A stretch of 64,000 bases of DNA. It comes from Candidatus Moranbacteria bacterium UBA2282. GTDB lineage: Bacteria; Patescibacteriota; Minisyncoccia; Moranbacterales; UBA2206. The position numbers and the translations under genes were made by a program. The DNA lies in the NCBI GenBank assembly GCA_002345745.1, contig DDWQ01000019.1, positions 83 through 64,082 on the forward strand, written 5' to 3'. The notes below the pieces were generated by a model. It was not told the origin of the DNA. It made no database searches and saw only the letters and a program-made list of their open reading frames with translations. Positions 1 to 25,452 of this stretch are shown piece after piece. Position 1 is the first letter of the stretch. The number at the start of each line of letters is the position of its first letter.

Positions 1-61
1 TTTTCCATATATTTGTATATAATTTTTGATAACCTTATTATACCATATTCCAGAAGTCTGT

Positions 62-133
62 CTATTTTTCACGGCTTTGGCTAAATTTAGTACCAACAAC
101 AGAATTTATTCTATATCCAACAGCAATTAACAT
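62..133 (-). pseudogene. RhuM-family gene remnant (23-codon fragment) downstream of an intact RhuM-type promoter
   Basis: Minus-strand ATG at 131-133 reads MLIAVGYRINSVVGTKFSQSREK*. The IAVGYRINS stretch matches the conserved core (DAIIAVGYRVNS) of the two RhuM genes in this window. The promoter and 5'UTR are near-identical to those of the RhuM-Doc gene. Confidence 0.4.
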
Positions 134-176
134 ATCCAAATTATAGATATCAATATATTAATTTAATTTATTATAA

Positions 177-209
177 TGATATTATATCACTATAATAGTT
201 TGCTGTCCA
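177..209 (-). promoter_or_regulatory. sigma70-like promoter TGGACA-17-TATAAT (minus strand) with palindrome TGATAT-T-ATATCA overlapping the -10
   Basis: rc(204-209)=TGGACA and rc(181-186)=TATAAT with a 17-nt spacer. About 85% identical to the promoter upstream of the RhuM-Doc gene at 37189-37221. Confidence 0.45.
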
Positions 210-1980: not shown

Positions 1981-4560
1981 TTATTCTTTTATAAACGCCG
2001 CGCCTGCAAATTTATCTGTTTTCAAATCAGTTTCTTTTTTGATGGAATTGCCCGTGCGAACTGCATCCTCCGGATAATTCCAAACTGTTTTATAGTTTTC
2101 GGGATACATAATTTCAGAAACAAATACACTACCCACGCTGCCAGATTGTTTTTGCGCTAATAATGAATAACTATCTGCCGCCGTTTTATCAGTGGAATTG
2201 GTAAAAATTTTAAATGGCAGTAAATATTTGTAAGTCACTTGAACTGTTTCCTGCGGACTGACATAAACCCAGTTAGCAAAAACTGTCTTATCTGAATCAT
2301 CATAAATTCGAGTACCGCTTTCTTCATCAATTACTATAGAATCTTCTTCTGTTTGAACTTGTGCATCATGTTTAAATCCCAGCACATTATAATCTAATGG
2401 CGGAGAATTAAATTCTCTAGTCTGTCCAGAAGCTGAAATCAAAGTTGAACCTTTTGGCACATAGACGCGCATATAGTCAGAATTAACTTTGTTCCACCAT
2501 TCCTTATCCAAATTACCTCCATTATGATGACGGGTTATAGTCACCGTGTCAATCACAGAACCATCTGTTTGAATTTCCGCCTTATGGGAAATTTTTTCAT
2601 CTACCACGCCATCCGTCTTATATCCATTAATATTAGTATTAATAACACTCAAATAATCTTTTTGCGTATTCAGAATCTCTCCTGACCAGCCAGCTTGCGA
2701 TAATATTTTTTCAATCTCATAGTTTTTCGAATAAATCAAAATTTGCTTTTCATTCAAACTTTGCACTAAAACGCTCATAGTCTGTGCCATATCAGCAAAA
2801 TTTTTCGTAGTGAAAATCTTATCGAGAATTTTCGGAGCCAAGTCAGCCAAAATCTGTTTTGGCTGGTTCAGTTCTTTGTCATAATCAACTTCAACTTCAT
2901 ACTGAATTTTTTCAATAAAATTATTCGCATCCACAGTCACATCATATTCTGGCATTTCAATCGGTCCAGTCACTTCCAAAAGTTTTTGCATCACATTCGG
3001 AGTCATAGTGATCACGCCATCCACAGTTGGTCCGCCAGTTTTTTCAAAAAACCAACTTGCCTTTTCAGCCGATTTTGGAAAATCTGGAAACCAATTACTA
3101 TCATGCAAGCTCCAAGCCGCCGAAATTTTTTGAATTGGAGTTGGTGGCACAACTTTTGCTCTAAGCTGTCCATCTGGATTGAAAATACCATCAATAAAAA
3201 ACTTGCGAATATTGCCATTAGAAATATCCATTAATCCATAAGTTCCAATAAATCCGCCTGTGGCTCGCATCTCCTGATTATTTTGGAATAAAAATAAATA
3301 TTTTCTCGGACCATTGCCACCCAAAACATCTGTAAAAATTTTACTATTATCTAGAAAACTCGCAATAAAATAGCGAATACTTGGTAATTTACTTTTCAAT
3401 TCTACAAATTGAACTCGTTGCTGCTGGGGAATATCTGAGACGTTAACCTTATCCAAATTGTTTTGTAAATCATCAACTAAAATTAAAATTTCTTTTAAAT
3501 TACTATCCGTGTCCTGAAATATTTTTAAAAATGAGACTGATTCATTATTTTGTTCTAGCGGATTTTTTATCTCATTAGCCAATTGCATAATTTCACCTGC
3601 TAAAACCCCAATTCGAGCGATATCCTTTCCTGATTGAGAAATATAATAACCAGAAGAAATTTTTGATAAATATGGTATGAACTGCGATGTTTCAACTAAA
3701 ATTTTTCCCAGACTATCAATATCAGTGGAAATTTCTCCAAATTTATCATAAGCTTCATTAAATTCAAATTTAGATTTTTCAAAATTCTTACCAACAATAT
3801 CTGCCTGAGCCAGAGCCAAATTAGCATAAGCACTCTTTCCTGTGCCTAAAACAGAATCTTTGATCTTGAGACCTTTATTAAAAAATCCTACACTAAAAAT
3901 AACAACAAAAATAACTATCGCAATACTAGAAAAAGAGAAGGCAAATTGCTTGTAATTAGAAACTACAAATATATCTGCTAATGTAAATCCATTCTGCTTT
4001 TTGTATTCAGCAACTTCTTCAAAAAAATTATCCTGCGTCACTTCACTATCTATGTCATGTTTCTGACTGAACTCAACATTTATATTCTGTACATTTTGCA
4101 CGTGAATCGTATTTTTCCGAACAATTGGCTCAGCTGGTACAATAATTCTGTCTTTTTTTACGATTGGCGTAGTAGCTACACGCACAACTGGCACGCTGTC
4201 AGAACGGAAAGTTTCTCCAAACTGATAAATCATTGTCGCTTGATCACTTTTCCGATATACCTGCGGTCGTGTAATAGCTCGTTTTTGATTATTACTCTTT
4301 ACAATATCATGAAAAAATTTATTTTTATTTTCACAAAGTACAGTAACTTTTCTCTCGGGCTTGCTAACTTTTTCGAATTGTAGAACTTGCCCACTTTTTT
4401 TAATTCTTTCCAAATCTAAATCACCAGCTTCATTAACCGGTTTTACATCAAACATCTGTGAAATTATTTTGTTTCTATTTTTATTTATCATAAATTGTTT
4501 GTGTTTCTTGTGCCATTTTTTTCCAGCTATATTTTTTTGCTTGCTCATATCCTCGCACAA
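1981..4560 (-). CDS. large membrane-anchored extracellular protein, DUF4012-like (assignment tentative)
   Basis: 859 aa, one N-proximal TM (IAIVIFVVIFSVGFF) and a GGFIGTYG motif region. It sits inside the glycosyltransferase cluster. The N-terminus overlaps the upstream GT stop by 80 nt, so the true start is probably a later Met (M24 or M36). Confidence 0.4.
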   Translation of the reverse strand: MCEDMSKQKNIAGKKWHKKHKQFMINKNRNKIISQMFDVKPVNEAGDLDLERIKKSGQVLQFEKVSKPERKVTVLCENKNKFFHDIVKSNNQKRAITRPQVYRKSDQATMIYQFGETFRSDSVPVVRVATTPIVKKDRIIVPAEPIVRKNTIHVQNVQNINVEFSQKHDIDSEVTQDNFFEEVAEYKKQNGFTLADIFVVSNYKQFAFSFSSIAIVIFVVIFSVGFFNKGLKIKDSVLGTGKSAYANLALAQADIVGKNFEKSKFEFNEAYDKFGEISTDIDSLGKILVETSQFIPYLSKISSGYYISQSGKDIARIGVLAGEIMQLANEIKNPLEQNNESVSFLKIFQDTDSNLKEILILVDDLQNNLDKVNVSDIPQQQRVQFVELKSKLPSIRYFIASFLDNSKIFTDVLGGNGPRKYLFLFQNNQEMRATGGFIGTYGLMDISNGNIRKFFIDGIFNPDGQLRAKVVPPTPIQKISAAWSLHDSNWFPDFPKSAEKASWFFEKTGGPTVDGVITMTPNVMQKLLEVTGPIEMPEYDVTVDANNFIEKIQYEVEVDYDKELNQPKQILADLAPKILDKIFTTKNFADMAQTMSVLVQSLNEKQILIYSKNYEIEKILSQAGWSGEILNTQKDYLSVINTNINGYKTDGVVDEKISHKAEIQTDGSVIDTVTITRHHNGGNLDKEWWNKVNSDYMRVYVPKGSTLISASGQTREFNSPPLDYNVLGFKHDAQVQTEEDSIVIDEESGTRIYDDSDKTVFANWVYVSPQETVQVTYKYLLPFKIFTNSTDKTAADSYSLLAQKQSGSVGSVFVSEIMYPENYKTVWNYPEDAVRTGNSIKKETDLKTDKFAGAAFIKE

Positions 4561-5605
4561 TCAAATCTTGACGTAACTCCTTGTCTTCGATTATCTTTTC
4601 TATCGCTTCAACAATCGAGTCAATATTTTTTCCATCAAAGAAATAGGCACTCTCACCTAAAATTTCCCGCATACAAGGATGATCAGAAGAAATGACTGGC
4701 ACACCTTTACTCATTGCTTCCAATGGCGGTAATCCAAAGCCTTCATACAGCGATGGAAAGATATTGGCAATTGATTGATGGAAAAGAACATCCAGCGTGT
4801 GATCAGAAATGTCCGACAAAAGGATGATGTTTCTAATCTGCTTATCCAAGATCAATTTATGCAATCGGTCATAAAAATAATCTCGTTTGCCAACTAGCAC
4901 CAGTTGCAACTCTGGTGAAGCTTGCAAAACTTGTGCAAAAGCCAGCACCAGTCTCTCCAAATTTTTGTGTGGATAGGCATTGCCGACATAGATCAGATAC
5001 GGTTTAATTATACCATACTTCTGCAAAATTTCTTGTGCATTTTTTGCACTGAACATACAATAATCTTCCGCCGACTCATAGGTCACAAAAATCTTTTTTT
5101 CTATCGCCCCTCCGTAATTTTCTATAATATCTTTTTTACTAAATTGCGAAATGGTGATAATGTCTCTTGCCCGCATGACAGCTAATTTGATTGCCATACG
5201 ATAGGCTAGAAATTTTATACGATACAATATCGGATGAAGTGTGCTACTGTGTACAGTCGGAAAATGCAATAATGTTAGATCATGAATCGTCACCACAAAT
5301 TTTCTACAATACATTATCGGCACGTTGAAATGTGGAAAATGCACTAAATCCAATTTATATTTATACAAAATCCAGGGGAAATAGATTTGTTCCGCCAAAG
5401 TATACCACTGATAGTCTGCCAAAACTTTCTGAAAATTCGGATTTTTCGGTTGATATTCATCGAAATTATCTTTTTTCAAAAACACAAAATATTGATTGCC
5501 ATCAGAAATGGCAACCTTTTCCAAATTCTCCACTAATTTTTGCGTATAACGCCCCAAGCCCTTCTGTTTAATCCCAAAAAAGCGGGCATCGATTCCAATT
5601 CTCAT
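4481..5605 (-). CDS. glycosyltransferase family 4 (GT-B)
   Basis: EGFGLPPLEAMSKGVPVISSD motif (E-x7-E GT4 signature), 374 aa. Confidence 0.8.
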   Translation of the reverse strand: MRIGIDARFFGIKQKGLGRYTQKLVENLEKVAISDGNQYFVFLKKDNFDEYQPKNPNFQKVLADYQWYTLAEQIYFPWILYKYKLDLVHFPHFNVPIMYCRKFVVTIHDLTLLHFPTVHSSTLHPILYRIKFLAYRMAIKLAVMRARDIITISQFSKKDIIENYGGAIEKKIFVTYESAEDYCMFSAKNAQEILQKYGIIKPYLIYVGNAYPHKNLERLVLAFAQVLQASPELQLVLVGKRDYFYDRLHKLILDKQIRNIILLSDISDHTLDVLFHQSIANIFPSLYEGFGLPPLEAMSKGVPVISSDHPCMREILGESAYFFDGKNIDSIVEAIEKIIEDKELRQDLIVRGYEQAKKYSWKKMAQETQTIYDK

Positions 5606-7554: not shown

Positions 7555-8580
7555 CTATTTTTTCTTCTTTTCCATCTCTAAAATTTTCTGCACCTCTCGA
7601 TCAAAGTCAGATTCTATTGGTTGATTTTTATTAAATTCAGCATATTCGCGAAGAGCTTTCTTTTCCGCCTGCACATGAGAAACATTACCCAATCCAATTA
7701 ATATTTTATATTCGTTAAAACTTAGAAATTTATTTACACTTTCAGCAAACTCTGCCATGGTAAATGTTTGCCTATTTTCAATCAAGTTTTCAATGTAATC
7801 AAAAAATCCAGAAATATTCCGTTCCAATTTTTTAATTTCTTTTTCAGATAAATAATTTTTAGCAATAGCTACATCGGTTGCCAAAATTCTTCCTCTTGGA
7901 CTATTTTTCCAAGAGGTTAGCCCCATAAATGGTTTGTTTCTATCTGCCTTGTTAATTATTATCTCAGCTGCAGTTTTTCCCGTGATAGCAAAATGAAATT
8001 TATTTTGCACAGTCGCAAAAAAATCTTTAGTAGTTTTTGAATTTGGGTCATAATCAATACTGCACTCAGAAAAGATATCTGTAATCTGCAAATAAATCCT
8101 TCGCTCACTCGCACGAATAGAGCGGATTCTTTCCAATAATTCTCGGAAATAATCCTTGCCAAATACCCTCTCACCTTGTTTCAACATTTCATCATTCATA
8201 GCAAAACCTTTTATGATGTATTCTTTTAGCACTTGAGTTGCCCACATACGAAATTGCGTCGCTCGAGCAGAATTCACTCGATATCCAACAGAAATGATTG
8301 CGTCGAGATTATAAAATTCAATCTCCCGAGAAACAGCCCTATTTCCTTCTTTTTGAACTATTCGAATTTTTCGAATAGTTGCTTTTTCGCTTAATTCTCG
8401 ACTTCCAAAGATCTCCTTGAGATGATAATTTATTGTATTGATCTCCACGCCGAAAAGCTCTGCCATCATTTTCTGGGTCAACCAAAGAGTTTCATCTTCT
8501 AAAAAAACTTCCAATTTTACATCTCCAATTGGAGTGGTGTAAAGAATAAATTTAGATAATTCTGATGATTTTTTTTGCAT
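7555..8580 (-). CDS. RhuM-family protein (virulence protein RhuM-like)
   Basis: YNLDAIISVGYRVNSARATQFRMWATQVLKEY, the conserved RhuM core. 341 aa. No Fic/Doc motif is present. Confidence 0.75.
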   Translation of the reverse strand: MQKKSSELSKFILYTTPIGDVKLEVFLEDETLWLTQKMMAELFGVEINTINYHLKEIFGSRELSEKATIRKIRIVQKEGNRAVSREIEFYNLDAIISVGYRVNSARATQFRMWATQVLKEYIIKGFAMNDEMLKQGERVFGKDYFRELLERIRSIRASERRIYLQITDIFSECSIDYDPNSKTTKDFFATVQNKFHFAITGKTAAEIIINKADRNKPFMGLTSWKNSPRGRILATDVAIAKNYLSEKEIKKLERNISGFFDYIENLIENRQTFTMAEFAESVNKFLSFNEYKILIGLGNVSHVQAEKKALREYAEFNKNQPIESDFDREVQKILEMEKKKK

Positions 8581-8602
8581 AAATTTTATTCTAGTCTACT
8601 AT

Positions 8603-8637
8603 ACTGATAGTATATCAGTATAAACATTTTTTGTCTA
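8603..8637 (-). promoter_or_regulatory. promoter TAGACA-17-TATACT with 7-bp-arm palindrome ACTGATA-GTA-TATCAGT overlapping the -10
   Basis: rc(8632-8637)=TAGACA and rc(8609-8614)=TATACT with a 17-nt spacer. A perfect inverted repeat at 8603-8619 overlaps the -10, about 28 nt upstream of the RhuM ATG. Confidence 0.45.
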
Positions 8638-13147: not shown

Positions 13148-13179
13148 AAAATATCAATGTTATTGAATCTAAAATTTTC

Positions 13180-13591
13180 AAGGTAAATCTGTAAGCCGGA
13201 TTCTGTTAAAAATAATCATTTATCTGGGCTTATTGTTACCAATAAGCTCTTGCAGTACCCACCAATACGAAGCACTGAAAACACCAATTTACTGTTTTCA
13301 CTGCTTCGCATTGGCGTACGACCTTGCATCTAAGTAAGGATTTAGCCGTTTCACCCCCAATATTACTATCGGGGCTCACCCCGAAGGGTGCTTTGATATT
13401 TTCACATCAAAGCGTCTCTGCTCGCACCTCGTAGGTCACCCTAGACGGGCGTTACCCGCTACCGATCCCCGCACTAACTTTGCATAGCACCTATGGTGCT
13501 TAGGCCGAAGGCCGATGCAAAGTTAGTGCGGGGCTGATGTCCGGACTTTCCTCCCTTCACAAAAGCGAAGAGCGATTATTCAATTTACCTT
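13180..13591 (-). ncRNA. rnpB: RNase P RNA (bacterial type A), rnpB
   Basis: No ORF is listed here. The minus strand contains the hallmarks GGGAGGAAAGUCCGG (P4 5' strand), GCGGGUAACGCCCG (P8), GGGGGUGAAACGG, AGAUAAAUGAUUA (J18/2-like) and ACAGAAUCCGGCUUA (P4 3' strand). A P1 closure pairs AAGGUAAAU with AUUUACCUU. Confidence 0.85.
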
Positions 13592-21046: not shown

Positions 21047-22297
21047 TTATTCTTTGCGCAAAGCATCCATCGGCGTCATTCGGGAAGCTTTGCGGGCCGG
21101 ATAGATTCCAAATCCCATTCCGGTTAAAACAGAAAAACCGATGCCCAAAAAGACGGCATAAGGAGAGATCCCAAGCTCCACCATATAACCTGCTCGCAAT
21201 GCTAATTTAGAGGCAAAATAGATTAAGATCGCCCCTAAAATAATACCCACAATTCCGCCTAAGATAGTAATGAAGATCGATTCGAATAAAAATTGCTTCA
21301 AGATGCTGGAATTTTTTGCGCCCACCGCTTTGCGCAGACCGATTTCCGGTGTCCTCTCCACCACTGAAACATACATCACATTCATGATGCCCACGCCACC
21401 CACAACAAGAGAAATTGAGGTGAGTGCGATGAGAAGAAGATTAACCACTAGAAAAACATCATCCAGCATTGTTGTGAATTCCTCGATGGAGGCCACCACG
21501 AAATCATCGTCGTTTGGATCTGTGATGTCATGGCGGTCCCGCATAATATCTCTCGCCTGCACCATCGTAAGCTCTGCTAATTTTTTATCTTCAAACTTGA
21601 AAATAGAAGACTGGACATAATCGATGCCAGCAATCTTTTTTTGGAATGTCTCGATCGGCACATAAATTAAATCATCAAAATTGAAAAACGCCATCGAACC
21701 CCTTTCTTCAAGATAACCAATCACCCGATAGTTCACGCCTTTGATCCTGATGTTTTTCCCCACTGGATCTTCATCTTTAAAAAGGTTTTCTTTGACTTGG
21801 CTTCCCAAAACCACTACCTGACTCAAACTCTTATCCTCATCTTGCGTATAACCAAAACCGTCAGCAAATTTGATTTGTTGATCAATGTCAAAAATTCCAG
21901 ACGAAGCCGCATAAATCATAGTCTGTTTGGTTTCTGAGCCATAACTCGTAACAGCCTGTCCGATACTCGCCGCATACCAACCAGAGACATTCGGCAATTC
22001 ACCAACTTCTTCTAGGTCACCGATCTTAAGGGTTGTTATAGAACCACTCGTTGCGCCTTGCACATTCTCTGAGGACATTTGCTTGGCTTGCGGAACCTTC
22101 ACTTCAATTTGAAATATGTCCGTTCCGAAAGATTCAACCTGACCGACAATATAATCTTTTACTCCAAACCCCAAAGAAAGAACCAGCACAACGGATACCA
22201 CTCCAATCACAATTCCCAAGACTGACAAAACAGTCCTGGCTATATTGGAGCGCAGATTATTGAGAGCTAATTTAATTGAAATTAATATTTCATGCAT
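21047..22297 (-). CDS. ABC transporter permease, FtsX/MacB-like
   Basis: 416 aa with an N-terminal TM, a MacB-like periplasmic core domain and a C-terminal FtsX 3-TM domain. Confidence 0.8.
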   Translation of the reverse strand: MHEILISIKLALNNLRSNIARTVLSVLGIVIGVVSVVLVLSLGFGVKDYIVGQVESFGTDIFQIEVKVPQAKQMSSENVQGATSGSITTLKIGDLEEVGELPNVSGWYAASIGQAVTSYGSETKQTMIYAASSGIFDIDQQIKFADGFGYTQDEDKSLSQVVVLGSQVKENLFKDEDPVGKNIRIKGVNYRVIGYLEERGSMAFFNFDDLIYVPIETFQKKIAGIDYVQSSIFKFEDKKLAELTMVQARDIMRDRHDITDPNDDDFVVASIEEFTTMLDDVFLVVNLLLIALTSISLVVGGVGIMNVMYVSVVERTPEIGLRKAVGAKNSSILKQFLFESIFITILGGIVGIILGAILIYFASKLALRAGYMVELGISPYAVFLGIGFSVLTGMGFGIYPARKASRMTPMDALRKE

Positions 22298-22306
22298 AAA
22301 AATTTA

Positions 22307-22460
22307 TTCATATCTTAATGCTTCCATTGGACTTATACGCGAAGCTTTGCGAGCAGGCCCGCCTGCATCGCATAAGCTATTTATTAATTAGTACTTTCTT
22401 TTTTAGTTTCATTATTCATATCTTAATGCTTCCATTGGACTTATATGCGAAGCTTTGCGG
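22307..22460. repeat. direct duplication (~45 bp, period 108 bp) of the 3' end of the upstream permease gene
   Basis: TTCATATCTTAATGCTTCCATTGGACTTATA(C/T)GCGAAGCTTTGCG occurs at 22307-22351 and at 22415-22460. The second copy encodes the C-terminal residues (RKASRISPMEALRYE) of permease 22412..23662. Confidence 0.7.
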
Positions 22461-23662
22461 GCAGGATATAATCCAAAAATCAAACCTATCAGAATGGAAA
22501 CTGTCGTAGCTACCGCGATCGACTGCCAGGAAACGATAAATTCCCAATCATAACCAAAACCTTTGATCACAACAAGAGAAATAATAAGGGCAATTAAAAT
22601 TCCTAAAATTATCCCAATGATTCCCCCAATCAAGGTTATTGTCACTGATTCAATTAGAAATTGAGACATAATAGCTGTATTTTTTGCTCCCACCGCTTTA
22701 CGCAAGCCCACTTCTCTGATCCGTTGATTAACAGAAATAAGCATAATATTCATAATGCCCACCCCTCCGACCAAAAGCGAAATCGATCCGACTGCCAACA
22801 AAAAATATTTCAAAACGTTTGTTACATTAGTGATGGTTTTGAGAGCCGAGGCAATGTCACGCACTGAAAAATCGTCATCTTTCGGATTATCGATATCGTG
22901 CCGCTCTCTAAGAGTTGTTGCCATGTCTTCTTTGGTCTTGGAAATATCATCGATATTACCAACTTTTACACGTAAAAATGAAAGATGATTAATGCCTAAA
23001 ACAATTTTTTGTGCAGCCTTAAGCGGAATGATTACTGAATCATCTGGACTGGCCATTCCAAAACCAGAACTACCTTTCCTTTTCAAAATCCCCACTACGG
23101 TGAAATTTTCATTCTTGATTTCGATTTTTTTCCCAAGCGCATTGTCCGTCCCAAAAAGCTCTTCCTTAGTATCAGCCCCAATTACCGCAATCCGAGAAAG
23201 ACTAGCATCATCTTCAGAAGAAAAAAACCTACCTTCTTCTATCTCGACATTTTCCACATTGATATAATCATGTGTGACACCCATGATTGTATGTGCATAA
23301 TCATTATCTTGATACGAAACAGTCCGCGTCCCTTGGGCATAGGCCGCCCCAGTTTCCACACTGGGCACATTTTTCTTATCCATGAGCGCCAAGAAATCAT
23401 CATACGTCAAAGTTGTAATGATAATTCCCAGCGCCTGTGCCGGTGGACCATCCTCATCTGAGGCTCCTGGCAAAACTCCAATTAGATTTGAGCCTACGCC
23501 GGAAATCTGATCCAAAATGAGCGTCTGAGCCGAACCACCGATAGCCATAATCAAAATCACTGAACCCACTCCGATCATGATTCCAAGAACCGTCAAAAAC
23601 GAGCGAAATTTATTCGCCATCAAATTGCGATATGAAATTCTCACTGGATCCATTACTCGCAT
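22412..23662 (-). CDS. ABC transporter permease, FtsX/MacB-like (paralog)
   Basis: 416 aa, the same architecture as 21047..22297. Confidence 0.8.
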   Translation of the reverse strand: MRVMDPVRISYRNLMANKFRSFLTVLGIMIGVGSVILIMAIGGSAQTLILDQISGVGSNLIGVLPGASDEDGPPAQALGIIITTLTYDDFLALMDKKNVPSVETGAAYAQGTRTVSYQDNDYAHTIMGVTHDYINVENVEIEEGRFFSSEDDASLSRIAVIGADTKEELFGTDNALGKKIEIKNENFTVVGILKRKGSSGFGMASPDDSVIIPLKAAQKIVLGINHLSFLRVKVGNIDDISKTKEDMATTLRERHDIDNPKDDDFSVRDIASALKTITNVTNVLKYFLLAVGSISLLVGGVGIMNIMLISVNQRIREVGLRKAVGAKNTAIMSQFLIESVTITLIGGIIGIILGILIALIISLVVIKGFGYDWEFIVSWQSIAVATTVSILIGLIFGLYPARKASHISPMEALRYE

Positions 23663-23732
23663 AATCCGTATAAATTACTAATCCTCAAAGGAGCTAAGCT
23701 CCTTTTGAAGCTCCTTTTGAAGCTCCTTTTTA

Positions 23733-24383
23733 CTATTCCTCTAATAAATATTTAGCTGTTTCTTTCTTCTCTTTTAAATATAATGCATTATTCTTTAAAA
23801 ATTCCCCGTATTGCCCAATATTATTGTTAAATTGTACCATAATAGATTCTTTATTGCACAGCGTTCCAGCTCTTTTTCCTAAATAATCCAGTAAACTAGA
23901 ATATTCCCAATCTTCTGCTCTATAACCATGAATAAAATTATTTTTGTTTACATAAGCAGAGAGATATAGTAAATATTCATTTGAATTAATATATATTGAT
24001 TTAAACGGCCCCTGAAAAAGTGACCCTGAGCGTTTGTATTTTTTGTTGAAATAATTTGTGTAACCAGTACCAATTTTGTGCATAAAAGTTTTTACGCCAT
24101 TTGTTCTCAATTGTTTCAGTATAATATGATAGTGATTTGGATTTATACAATAGCAAACTATTTCCACTAAATTATCCAGTTTCACAGAGGTGGAGCTAAG
24201 CTCTTTTAAGGAGCTTAGCTCCTTTTCAAACATCCGTTGTTCATAAGTTGAATCATCATTAAATTCGCGCATGCTATTTAAAAATCGAATATAATCTTCC
24301 TCATCCAAAAACACCTCTCGCTTGTCTACTCCGCGATTATAAATATGATAAAATTCTTCGTTTTTAAATTCTGTTTTTCGCAT
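23733..24383 (-). CDS. IS200-like / REP-associated tyrosine transposase (Y1, HuH family)
   Basis: FYHIYNRGVDKREVFLDEEDYIRFL...CYCINPNHYHIIL (HuH motif)...GYTNYFNKKYKRSGSLFQGPFKSIYINSNEYLLYLSAYVNKNN (catalytic Tyr region)...EDWEYSS. It is collinear with RAYT/IS200 TnpA families, with a ~30 aa insert. Confidence 0.8.
   Translation of the reverse strand: MRKTEFKNEEFYHIYNRGVDKREVFLDEEDYIRFLNSMREFNDDSTYEQRMFEKELSSLKELSSTSVKLDNLVEIVCYCINPNHYHIILKQLRTNGVKTFMHKIGTGYTNYFNKKYKRSGSLFQGPFKSIYINSNEYLLYLSAYVNKNNFIHGYRAEDWEYSSLLDYLGKRAGTLCNKESIMVQFNNNIGQYGEFLKNNALYLKEKKETAKYLLEE
24191..24230. repeat. REP-like palindrome pair (GGAGCTAAGCTC ... GGAGCTTAGCTCC) embedded in-frame in the transposase ORF
   Basis: The same motif as at the element ends. 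It encodes KELSSLKELSS inside the transposase. Confidence 0.6.
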
Positions 24384-24416: not shown

Positions 24417-25343
24417 TCACAATGAATTAATAAAATTATCCTGTTCTTGAATGTTTTCATCTAATTCCCCTATTTTGCGAAATACTCCCTCGCCGAAAGT
24501 GCGATCAATTAACTTTCCAATAGAAATTATGTTTCCAGTCATCATTGCTTTTGAAAACATTTCAAAAATATCTTCCCTATTCCTGAAATCTTCTTTGTTT
24601 TGCTCAAATAATTTATCAATTAAAATACTTAATATTTTTCTTCCTATTGTATTTGTAAAACTCTCAATATTTATCTTGTTCGATCCATCTTCCATCTTGG
24701 CATAAATCGTATCACTGTTGAAAAGATATTTTCCATCATTCGTCATAGCATTTAGATGTTTTTTTATTATTTCATTTGTTTCTTTTATTTCAGCTGAAAA
24801 TAATGGATTATTAGCTACTTTTGCAAGAATACTCCTTGTCATTTCTTCCGTAACCGCTTCATTTAAAATTCTGAAGCGCAATCCCTTTCCATTTCGCATG
24901 CTAACGGTTAACCCAACCCTATATTCATCAGCACTGCCATCATCTAGAATTTGTAGGGCATTATAAGATTTAAAATGCAACATTTCATGCACTACTTTTT
25001 TCATAAAAACAATGCTGGCAGCCTGTTCTTGTAGAGCAACAGATTGTGCCATTGAAACATAAATTGCACTTGCTTTTTTTGGCCACTCATTCTTTTTCAC
25101 AATGTGAATATTTTTTGATGGTATATTAAATAAATCTAAGTCGTACTTTTGTCTAATTTCATTTGTAAGCCTATTTGCAAGTTCAATAATTTGCAACTCC
25201 TTTGGAGTTTTTTCTCTTTCTTTGCCAATTAATTCTTGAAATTCTTGATTGTTAAACTGCCATTCTTTTTCCTTAATAATTTCATTTTTTTTATTTTCAT
25301 TTGCTTTTCCAACAACCCGCTCAAAAGAAGTAAATTTTTCCAT
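24417..25343 (-). CDS. hypothetical protein with HExxH (zinc-metallopeptidase-like) motif
   Basis: 308 aa with a VVHEMLHF motif and no TM. Co-located with the transposase between the palindrome clusters. Confidence 0.4.
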   Translation of the reverse strand: MEKFTSFERVVGKANENKKNEIIKEKEWQFNNQEFQELIGKEREKTPKELQIIELANRLTNEIRQKYDLDLFNIPSKNIHIVKKNEWPKKASAIYVSMAQSVALQEQAASIVFMKKVVHEMLHFKSYNALQILDDGSADEYRVGLTVSMRNGKGLRFRILNEAVTEEMTRSILAKVANNPLFSAEIKETNEIIKKHLNAMTNDGKYLFNSDTIYAKMEDGSNKINIESFTNTIGRKILSILIDKLFEQNKEDFRNREDIFEMFSKAMMTGNIISIGKLIDRTFGEGVFRKIGELDENIQEQDNFINSL

Positions 25344-25452
25344 ATTTATAAATATTTTTACTCATATATCTTAAATTTTATTTTCCACACATCTTATAAG
25401 AAGTCAAAAGGAGCTTCAAAAGGAGCTAAGCTCCTTTTTCTAGCTCCTTTTT

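Follow-up and report, generated by a model that had tools for sequence, protein, structure and literature searches.

The 64-kb stretch of DNA analysed here (the window), a piece of a 143.6-kb metagenomic contig (JGI 3300040971, Ga0242423_000176), raises the question of why three RhuM-type loci inserted among housekeeping genes carry the same inverted repeat over the -10 element of their promoters, and of what might bind it. Most of the window is given over to housekeeping functions (MurJ, glycosyltransferases, several aminoacyl-tRNA synthetases, enolase, phosphoglycerate mutase and kinase, ScpA/B and RecJ), and all of its assessed ORFs except one lie on the minus strand. The RhuM assignments made for the three loci in an earlier note on this DNA proved correct. 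RhuM A (341 aa; 7555-8580, minus strand) combines an N-terminal module, modelled as a winged helix-turn-helix (wHTH), with a full RhuM domain, and matches both the PF13310 HMM (E = 4e-107) and the PADLOC model PDC-S05 (E = 9e-152) over their full length. RhuM-Doc B (328 aa; 36179-37165, minus strand) has the same N-terminal module as A, matching PF13310 positions 1-70, followed by a Fic/DOC domain (PF02661, TIGR01550), and is a full-length match to PADLOC PDC-S23 (E = 2e-107). The third locus, C (62-152, minus strand), is a remnant that has lost the first ~80 codons and everything past codon ~110, leaving residues ~81-110, YIDIYNLD-MLIAVGYRINSVVGTKFSQSREK, followed by a stop.

The RhuM family is widespread and strongly conserved, with 60-80% identity between phyla, and those of its members recovered here that carry a source name are mostly from Patescibacteria/CPR. 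RhuM has been proposed to be a toxin embedded in or associated with type I restriction-modification (R-M) loci (PMC3710099), and a single PDC-S05 gene lowered the plating of T7 and T5 on E. coli about 1000-fold, with protection covering T7, T5 and T4 (bioRxiv 10.1101/2024.09.26.614923). By their full-length PADLOC matches A and B belong with the candidate single-gene anti-phage systems PDC-S05 and PDC-S23. The PADLOC collection also includes shorter models, some stopping near aa 80 and one beginning at aa 64. Homologues with ~57% identity to A, annotated as "putative DNA-binding protein", also occur near one end of many Streptococcus satellite-phage records (e.g. MK448320.1, positions 1311-2297), consistent with carriage as defence cargo on mobile elements. 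In most genomes the family is operonic, in R-M loci or phage satellites, and has no promoter of its own; unlike most family members, the RhuM genes of the window stand alone among housekeeping genes, each with a private promoter and a putative operator. The literature that we searched describes no regulation of the RhuM family, and nothing in it links RhuM with a palindrome, hairpin or operator.

The architecture that the earlier note attributed to all three loci, namely a -35 element, a 17-nt spacer, a -10 element and an inverted repeat over the latter, is borne out in every coordinate, on the minus strand throughout. At site A the -35 TAGACA (8632-8637) lies 17 nt upstream of the -10 TATACT (8614-8609), which is extended by a TG at 8617-8616. 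Site B has a -35 TGGACA (37216-37221), a 17-nt spacer and a -10 TACAAT (37198-37193) with its TG at 37201-37200, and at site C the -35 TGGACA (209-204) is followed at the same spacing by a -10 TATAAT (186-181), likewise preceded by TG. A promoter scan of the window detected all three, each with the TG before the -10; they are of the sigma-70 type, with -35-like and -10-like hexamers 17 nt apart in intergenic DNA just upstream of a gene. The start codon, claimed to lie 28 nt downstream in both intact copies, does so at A, counting from the -10 to the ATG, and at B the distance is 27 nt. The resulting 5' leaders (~20 nt, A-rich) are devoid of a Shine-Dalgarno sequence. The extended -10 in its general form TGnTAnnnT is found upstream of 16 of the 33 window genes that have intergenic space, in several cases as TGATAnAAT. 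For the genes ending at 5605, 17577, 19404 and 59552 it ends ~1-7 nt before the annotated start, and this proximity to the start codon suggests that several window genes have leaderless mRNAs. A perfect DnaA-box consensus, TTATCCACA, is situated at 37232-37240 (minus strand), 10 nt upstream of the -35 of promoter B, and TTGTGCACA occupies the same position at site C; the match at B is possibly due to chance.

The inverted repeats are real at all three sites and longer than had been reported, with arms of 10-13 nt. At A a perfect 10-3-10 palindrome (TATACTGATA-TAC-TATCAGTATA, 8600-8622, minus strand) spans the extended -10, the discriminator and the start region. At B the repeat is 13-3-13 with 2 mismatches (TGTTATAGTGATA-CAA-TATCATCATAACA, 37181-37209, minus strand; core 37189-37201), and at C it is 13-1-13 with 1 mismatch (ATTATAGTGATAT-A-ATATCATTATAAT, 170-196, minus strand; core 177-189). 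The half-site common to the three is TTATAnTGATA, and the whole element is a 25-bp unit of 11-3-11 geometry. Its core, TGATANNNTATCA (TGATA-N3-TATCA), has exactly three matches on both strands of the 64 kb, at 177, 8605 and 37189, every one of them over the -10 of a RhuM promoter. Shuffled sequences gave a mean of 0.15 matches and a maximum of 1, none of 100 reaching 3, and thus the palindrome is both commoner than chance (3 vs 0.15) and, as would befit an operator, placed across the -10 and the expected start site. A TATAAT-like sequence is nearly self-complementary, and apparent symmetry is for this reason inflated in AT-rich promoters. The left arm of the palindrome is indeed the extended -10 itself (TGnTAnAAT), common in this genome; its continuation into TATCA is restricted in the window to the three RhuM sites, none of the other TGATAnAAT promoters extending into such a right arm, which is hence specific to RhuM promoters rather than a generic promoter feature. 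As single-stranded DNA the arms at A, B and C pair weakly (-4 to -6 kcal/mol), the fold at A having an energy of -6.2 kcal/mol (z = -3.9), matched by none of 200 shuffles. The promoter and terminator scan called no terminator at any of the three sites, and no T-run follows the palindromes. Given this weak pairing and the lack of terminator features, a double-stranded protein-binding site is the natural reading.

In a repeat search the upstream regions of A, B and C formed one 85-nt repeat family, the identities to its reference copy being 61% and 80%. The promoters of B and C had been described as about 85% identical over 45 nt, which is a fair figure: they are 80% identical over 85 nt and ~89% over the 45-nt core of the alignment by our own count, the A promoter having 66-74% identity to these two. 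The further claim that a gene was recently duplicated together with its promoter is not supported. The proteins A and B share 30% identity overall and 46% over the first 140 residues, and the coding DNA left in remnant C is 68% identical to A or to B. Since the cores of B and C are ~89% identical against 68% for the adjoining coding remnant, the non-coding block is the more constrained part. The nearest full-length relatives of A (P0001-P0004, 79% identity) lack a promoter of this kind; they follow another gene at a distance of 18-23 nt, and are operonic or cut off by the contig end. In another Patescibacteria genome (L174) a RhuM-Doc gene that follows a NUDIX gene, in synteny with B, shares a different upstream sequence with a RhuM gene close by (~1470-1500 and ~3750-3785; TTATTGTCCGATTGTAATAAACTATATGTA vs TTATCGTTCAATTGTAGTAAATTATATGTA). 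Paralogues within one genome may thus generally share control regions. Directly downstream of remnant C there is a promoter, TAGACA-16-TGGTATAAT (window 1-61; L171 11952-12494), followed by a 180-aa protein made up of about four repeats of KLAVMMKDGFE.VDKKADANLSEANKRTDEEIR that gave no significant Pfam match.

Beyond the window, the 25-bp block recurs upstream of five independent metagenomic RhuM-Doc relatives (L086, L173, L099, L101 and L116; 61-78% protein identity), always ending 23-25 nt before the ATG and constituting the best-conserved part of these promoters. An alignment of eight sites, comprising A, B and C of the window and these five, has the TG one base upstream of the -10 in all eight, and its invariant columns, TG.TA...TATCA...TA, fall inside the palindrome while the -35 varies; the core of L099 is imperfect (TGGTA). 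Both half-sites are therefore conserved in diverged relatives past what a promoter needs, with ATCA and yTATAA downstream of the -10 invariant or nearly so down to 61% protein identity. The search for the palindrome at other RhuM and Fic genes, proposed as a check in the earlier note, was otherwise mostly negative. It is missing upstream of all 80 RhuM genes taken from one-per-species GTDB genomes of bacteria and archaea, most of which are operonic and often in R-M loci, and among ~80 metagenomic RhuM-Doc loci the five relatives have it and ~70 do not. An nhmmer profile of the 36-nt core recovered no extra copies in ~0.9 Mb of loci, and a search for operator-like inverted repeats upstream of other RhuM-Doc genes returned mostly GC-rich terminators of the genes preceding them. 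The genes that do not have the palindrome include stand-alone RhuM-family genes with promoters of their own, as well as a syntenic NUDIX-RhuM-Doc relative (L174-176). An operator common to the entire RhuM family can hence be rejected. Given its absence from the 80 RhuM genes of other phyla and from ~70 other RhuM-Doc loci, the promoter palindrome is, as judged from these comparisons, a lineage-specific operator-like element.

The two further Fic genes of the window carry repeats different from the palindrome of the RhuM promoters. Upstream of one (58620-59552, minus strand) a perfect 18-bp palindrome, CAAACTTTATAAAGTTTG (59566-59583), fills the 17-nt spacer of a TTGACA/TAATAT promoter, and looks like another private operator, AAACTTTATAAAG occurring once more immediately ahead of the -35 (~59600-59612); as the -10 ends ~7 nt short of the ATG, the transcript may be leaderless. 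The other (57470-58369, minus strand) has a TTGACA-17-TATAAT promoter within 58376-58452, on either side of which ATAAATTCACTA is repeated in direct orientation, first ahead of the -35 and again past the -10. Elsewhere in the window, near-identical palindromes AAAGGAGCTAAGCTCCTTT (23687-23705 and 25418-25438) flank two genes, of which one (23733-24383) encodes an IS200-like Y1 transposase domain and the other (24417-25343) has no Pfam hit; the pair may be a REP/RAYT-like or IS200/IS605-like unit. Between tandem genes for MacB/FtsX-type permeases (21047-22297 and 22412-23662) lies an orphan stretch of 54 nt (22304-22357) that duplicates the 3' end of the second gene with 96% identity.

The earlier note took the palindrome to be a common operator and likely a repressor site. 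Such a reading remains the best one for the window and the related promoters, in that the invariant columns lie in the palindrome, the -35 varies and the right arm is missing from other TGATAnAAT promoters; its commonality, as seen above, is confined to one lineage. The palindrome would then be a repressor operator over the core of a sigma-70-type extended -10 promoter that drives stand-alone RhuM-family toxin or defence genes in one Patescibacteria sub-lineage. In this model the operator would consist of an inverted repeat of TTATAnTGATA with a 3-nt centre, the left arm doubling as the TGnTAnAAT of the promoter and the right arm covering the discriminator and the transcription start expected some 7 nt after the -10, so that a dimer occupying it would exclude RNA polymerase. 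The likeliest binder would be the RhuM proteins' own N-terminal winged helix-turn-helix, with autorepression and cross-repression among the paralogs as the predicted outcome, and the RhuM genes would be held low until triggered, like many toxin and defence genes. We infer that the operator is bound, which protein binds it and that binding represses.

The candidate binder is the sole module common to A and B. It models as a winged helix-turn-helix, and its best structural matches are pSK1 Par, the N-terminal domain of ParA, RacA, the MerR family and Xis; the winged-HTH partition and autoregulatory proteins bind DNA repeats or palindromes, and several of them are autorepressors. A Foldseek search of the PDB with the model gave no significant match, and a sequence-profile search of the PDB found nothing for this module. 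Five of the six palindrome-bearing RhuM-Doc loci have closely similar recognition helices, VQKAAISKH in L086, L173, L101 and L116 and VKKAAISKH in B of the window, the sixth (L099) having a different one; the syntenic relative L174-176, which is devoid of the palindrome, has VDKSGISRH. The association of helix type with operator is confounded by shared descent. VQKAA(I/V)SKH is also present in four loci without the palindrome (L172, L123, L133 and L154), and most RhuM-family members have a conserved wHTH yet no such palindrome. Auto- or cross-repression by the RhuM wHTH is nevertheless favoured because neither the 64-kb window nor the 10 kb adjoining it contains another recognisable gene for a regulator, and we put it forward tentatively, as a prediction with somewhat less than an even chance of being right.

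A separate trans-acting repressor encoded elsewhere, Fur/PerR-like or some other global or defence-island regulator that would co-regulate the three RhuM loci, ranks second after this and is a possibility that we consider rather less probable. The recognition helices of A and B clearly differ (INTINYHLKEIF vs KAAISKHFKKIF) while their half-sites are nearly the same (ATACTGATA vs ATAGTGATA), a combination that one common trans-acting factor fits at least as well as two self-specific repressors do, and the operator persists ahead of the dead remnant C. Against such a factor stand the lack of a regulator gene just noted, the restriction of the motif to RhuM promoters in ~74 kb of this genome, and the fact that horizontally mobile single-gene modules usually bring their control with them. 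The Fur-type version of the proposal derives from the 7-1-7 box of the Fur family in Bacillus, TGATAAT-N-ATTATCA. This box (TGATAATNATTATCA) is likewise an inverted repeat rich in A and T, of the form TGATA...TATCA, that mimics and overlaps the -10; the resemblance is best treated as a lead. The arms at the RhuM promoters are 2 bp closer, TGATA and TATCA being separated by 3 nt in all eight sites as against 5 nt in the Fur box, and we saw no Fur-family gene or metal-related target. The Fur-type 7-1-7 box was rejected on account of this misfit in geometry.

It is also conceivable, if unlikely, that RNA polymerase is the sole binder and that the block is a plain promoter, an extended -10 with its initial transcribed sequence inherited in one gene lineage, the symmetry being a by-product. 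The common TGnTAnAAT element fully explains the left arm, a second TATAAT-like hexamer lies in the right-hand flank, the element is confined to a few related genes, and matches to the promoter consensus are about as frequent in the window as in its shuffles. However, arms of 10-13 nt reach well past the -10, with A perfect and folding better than all 200 shuffles; the near-invariant ATCA and yTATAA persist to 61% protein identity while the -35 drifts; and a right arm is missing from the other TGATAnAAT promoters. Far less probable is a role at the level of nucleic-acid structure, in which an RNA stem-loop in read-through transcripts or a DNA cruciform would act as a terminator, insulator or processing site. 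Read-through is plausible given the co-directional genes, and the palindrome arms are able to pair, but the stems are weak and built of A and T only, no T-run or called terminator follows, and the left arm would be missing from any transcript of this promoter. Rfam assigns only two matches in the window, the bacterial class A RNase P RNA (13176-13591; 116 bits) and one tRNA (63235-63305), both on the minus strand, and no known RNA family thus coincides with the palindromes. The least credible candidate is a LexA (SOS) box, an idea prompted by E. coli dinD, which LexA regulates and which is related to the N-terminal region of RhuM. The E. coli LexA box is CTG-N10-CAG, which TACTG-N9-CAGTA at site A superficially resembles with a spacing one base short; the CTG and CAG are missing from B and C. 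Although the dinD (PRK11525) domain has been reported alongside RhuM within single proteins (PMC9881135), what is cited as the LexA motif of Patescibacteria is a direct repeat and not a palindrome (PMC7739468), and the window offers for comparison no SOS gene, lexA and recA included, that bears a site of this kind. We accordingly set this candidate aside on the strength of the form of the phylum motif and of sites B and C.

The arrangement proposed for the RhuM loci, with repression by the RhuM module itself, has a partial parallel in phd/doc of phage P1, an autoregulated type II toxin-antitoxin system. As in B, a Doc-type toxin gene (TIGR01550) lies behind a promoter with an inverted repeat over its core, and the unit transcribed from it also encodes a DNA-binding domain, though in RhuM this domain is putative and known from a model. 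The two differ in that phd/doc has a separate antitoxin, whereas the RhuM loci are without one and the putative DNA-binding domain is fused to the toxin; further, the DNA-binder of phd/doc is of the Phd/YefM fold and the RhuM module is a modelled winged HTH. RhuM A, unlike phd/doc, has no Doc domain. No small ORF intervenes between the promoters and the RhuM genes, the ATG following 27-28 nt after the -10, and hence no gene for a separate antitoxin is found there.

A scan for perfect inverted repeats detected a second palindrome inside the coding sequences of both intact genes, ~240 bp downstream of the promoter palindrome and within the shared N-terminal module. In A it is AACTATTCGAA-AAA-TTCGAATAGTT (8356-8380, minus strand), encoding TIRKIRIV (aa 68-75), and in B AACTGTTTCCA-AAA-TGGAAACAGTT (36944-36968, minus strand), encoding TVSKMETV (aa 67-74); both are 11-3-11, at the same codon position but of different sequence, and the codons involved (~67-75) specify the first wing strand of the modelled winged HTH. 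In 132 homologous loci, drawn from many bacterial and archaeal phyla, a palindrome occupies the corresponding position, with arms of 10-16 nt in 80 of them; overall, nearly all of ~130 homologues have kept it. These loci contain 79 distinct 25-mers, and the encoded peptide changes in step with the palindrome (RKIR, RKFR, SILE, AKNA, CAKFA, GKFP, EKIS, KEIL). When 119 of the palindromes were aligned, 95.2% of the cells were paired, as against 68% in shuffles and 17-44% with slid partners, and two-sided (compensatory) changes were seen in 10 of the 11 pairs. The third-codon positions obey the symmetry, which indicates that selection acts on the nucleic acid, and from these alignments we regard such selection on the intragenic palindrome as close to certain. 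The centre is strand-symmetric (AAA 45, TTT 30, AAT 24, ATT 19), and G-T and A-C mismatches are equally rare and explained by single transitions, G-T pairs not being favoured; on both counts the comparison leans slightly towards a role at the level of DNA rather than RNA.

No Rfam family matches the intragenic palindrome and we found no literature that mentions it; hence it appears to be undescribed so far. By inspection it bears no sequence similarity to the promoter palindrome while having the same 11-3-11 geometry, and the N-terminal winged-HTH module may be a self-contained regulatory cassette with two such palindromes. In one scenario, which we consider doubtful, the intragenic palindrome would form a functional hairpin, or would offer the module that it encodes a structure-specific binding site, and would cooperate with the promoter operator to keep the toxin silent until infection; such cooperation might proceed by looping, a roadblock or control of the mRNA. 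The function of the intragenic palindrome, and any link to the promoter site, are speculative. The parS site inside spo0J/parB provides a precedent, being a palindrome that is bound by the very protein in whose gene it is located, but the sequence of parS is conserved, whereas in the RhuM intragenic palindrome the symmetry alone persists and both the nucleotides and the encoded peptide vary. Orphan palindromes of the intragenic type (e.g. AGTTGTTGCAAAAAATGCAACAACT) also occur upstream of intact RhuM-Doc genes, at 1429-1453 in L172, where it differs from the internal palindrome of the same gene, and ~50 nt upstream of the ATG at 1555 in L134, where no internal palindrome was detected. In all likelihood they are what is left of former RhuM copies, as remnant C is, and they suggest that RhuM genes turn over often.

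Taken alone, the promoter palindrome is of modest interest, representing a routine arrangement in which a toxin or defence gene is placed under an operator overlapping the -10. Its practical value is that a defined 25-bp site and a candidate binding domain (aa ~30-90) are available for a first regulatory test in the RhuM family, and it illustrates the wiring of RhuM genes that have left R-M operons and exist singly in a reduced Patescibacteria genome. More is to be gained from the intragenic palindrome, which bacteria and archaea alike retain in the part of the gene that codes for the DNA-binding module, at a cost to the protein sequence, and which merits separate study. Should it prove to act as a cis-regulatory hairpin or as a binding site, it would offer a new handle on the control or triggering of the RhuM defence family, and would furthermore be a clear example of how the structure of a nucleic acid can constrain the evolution of a protein.
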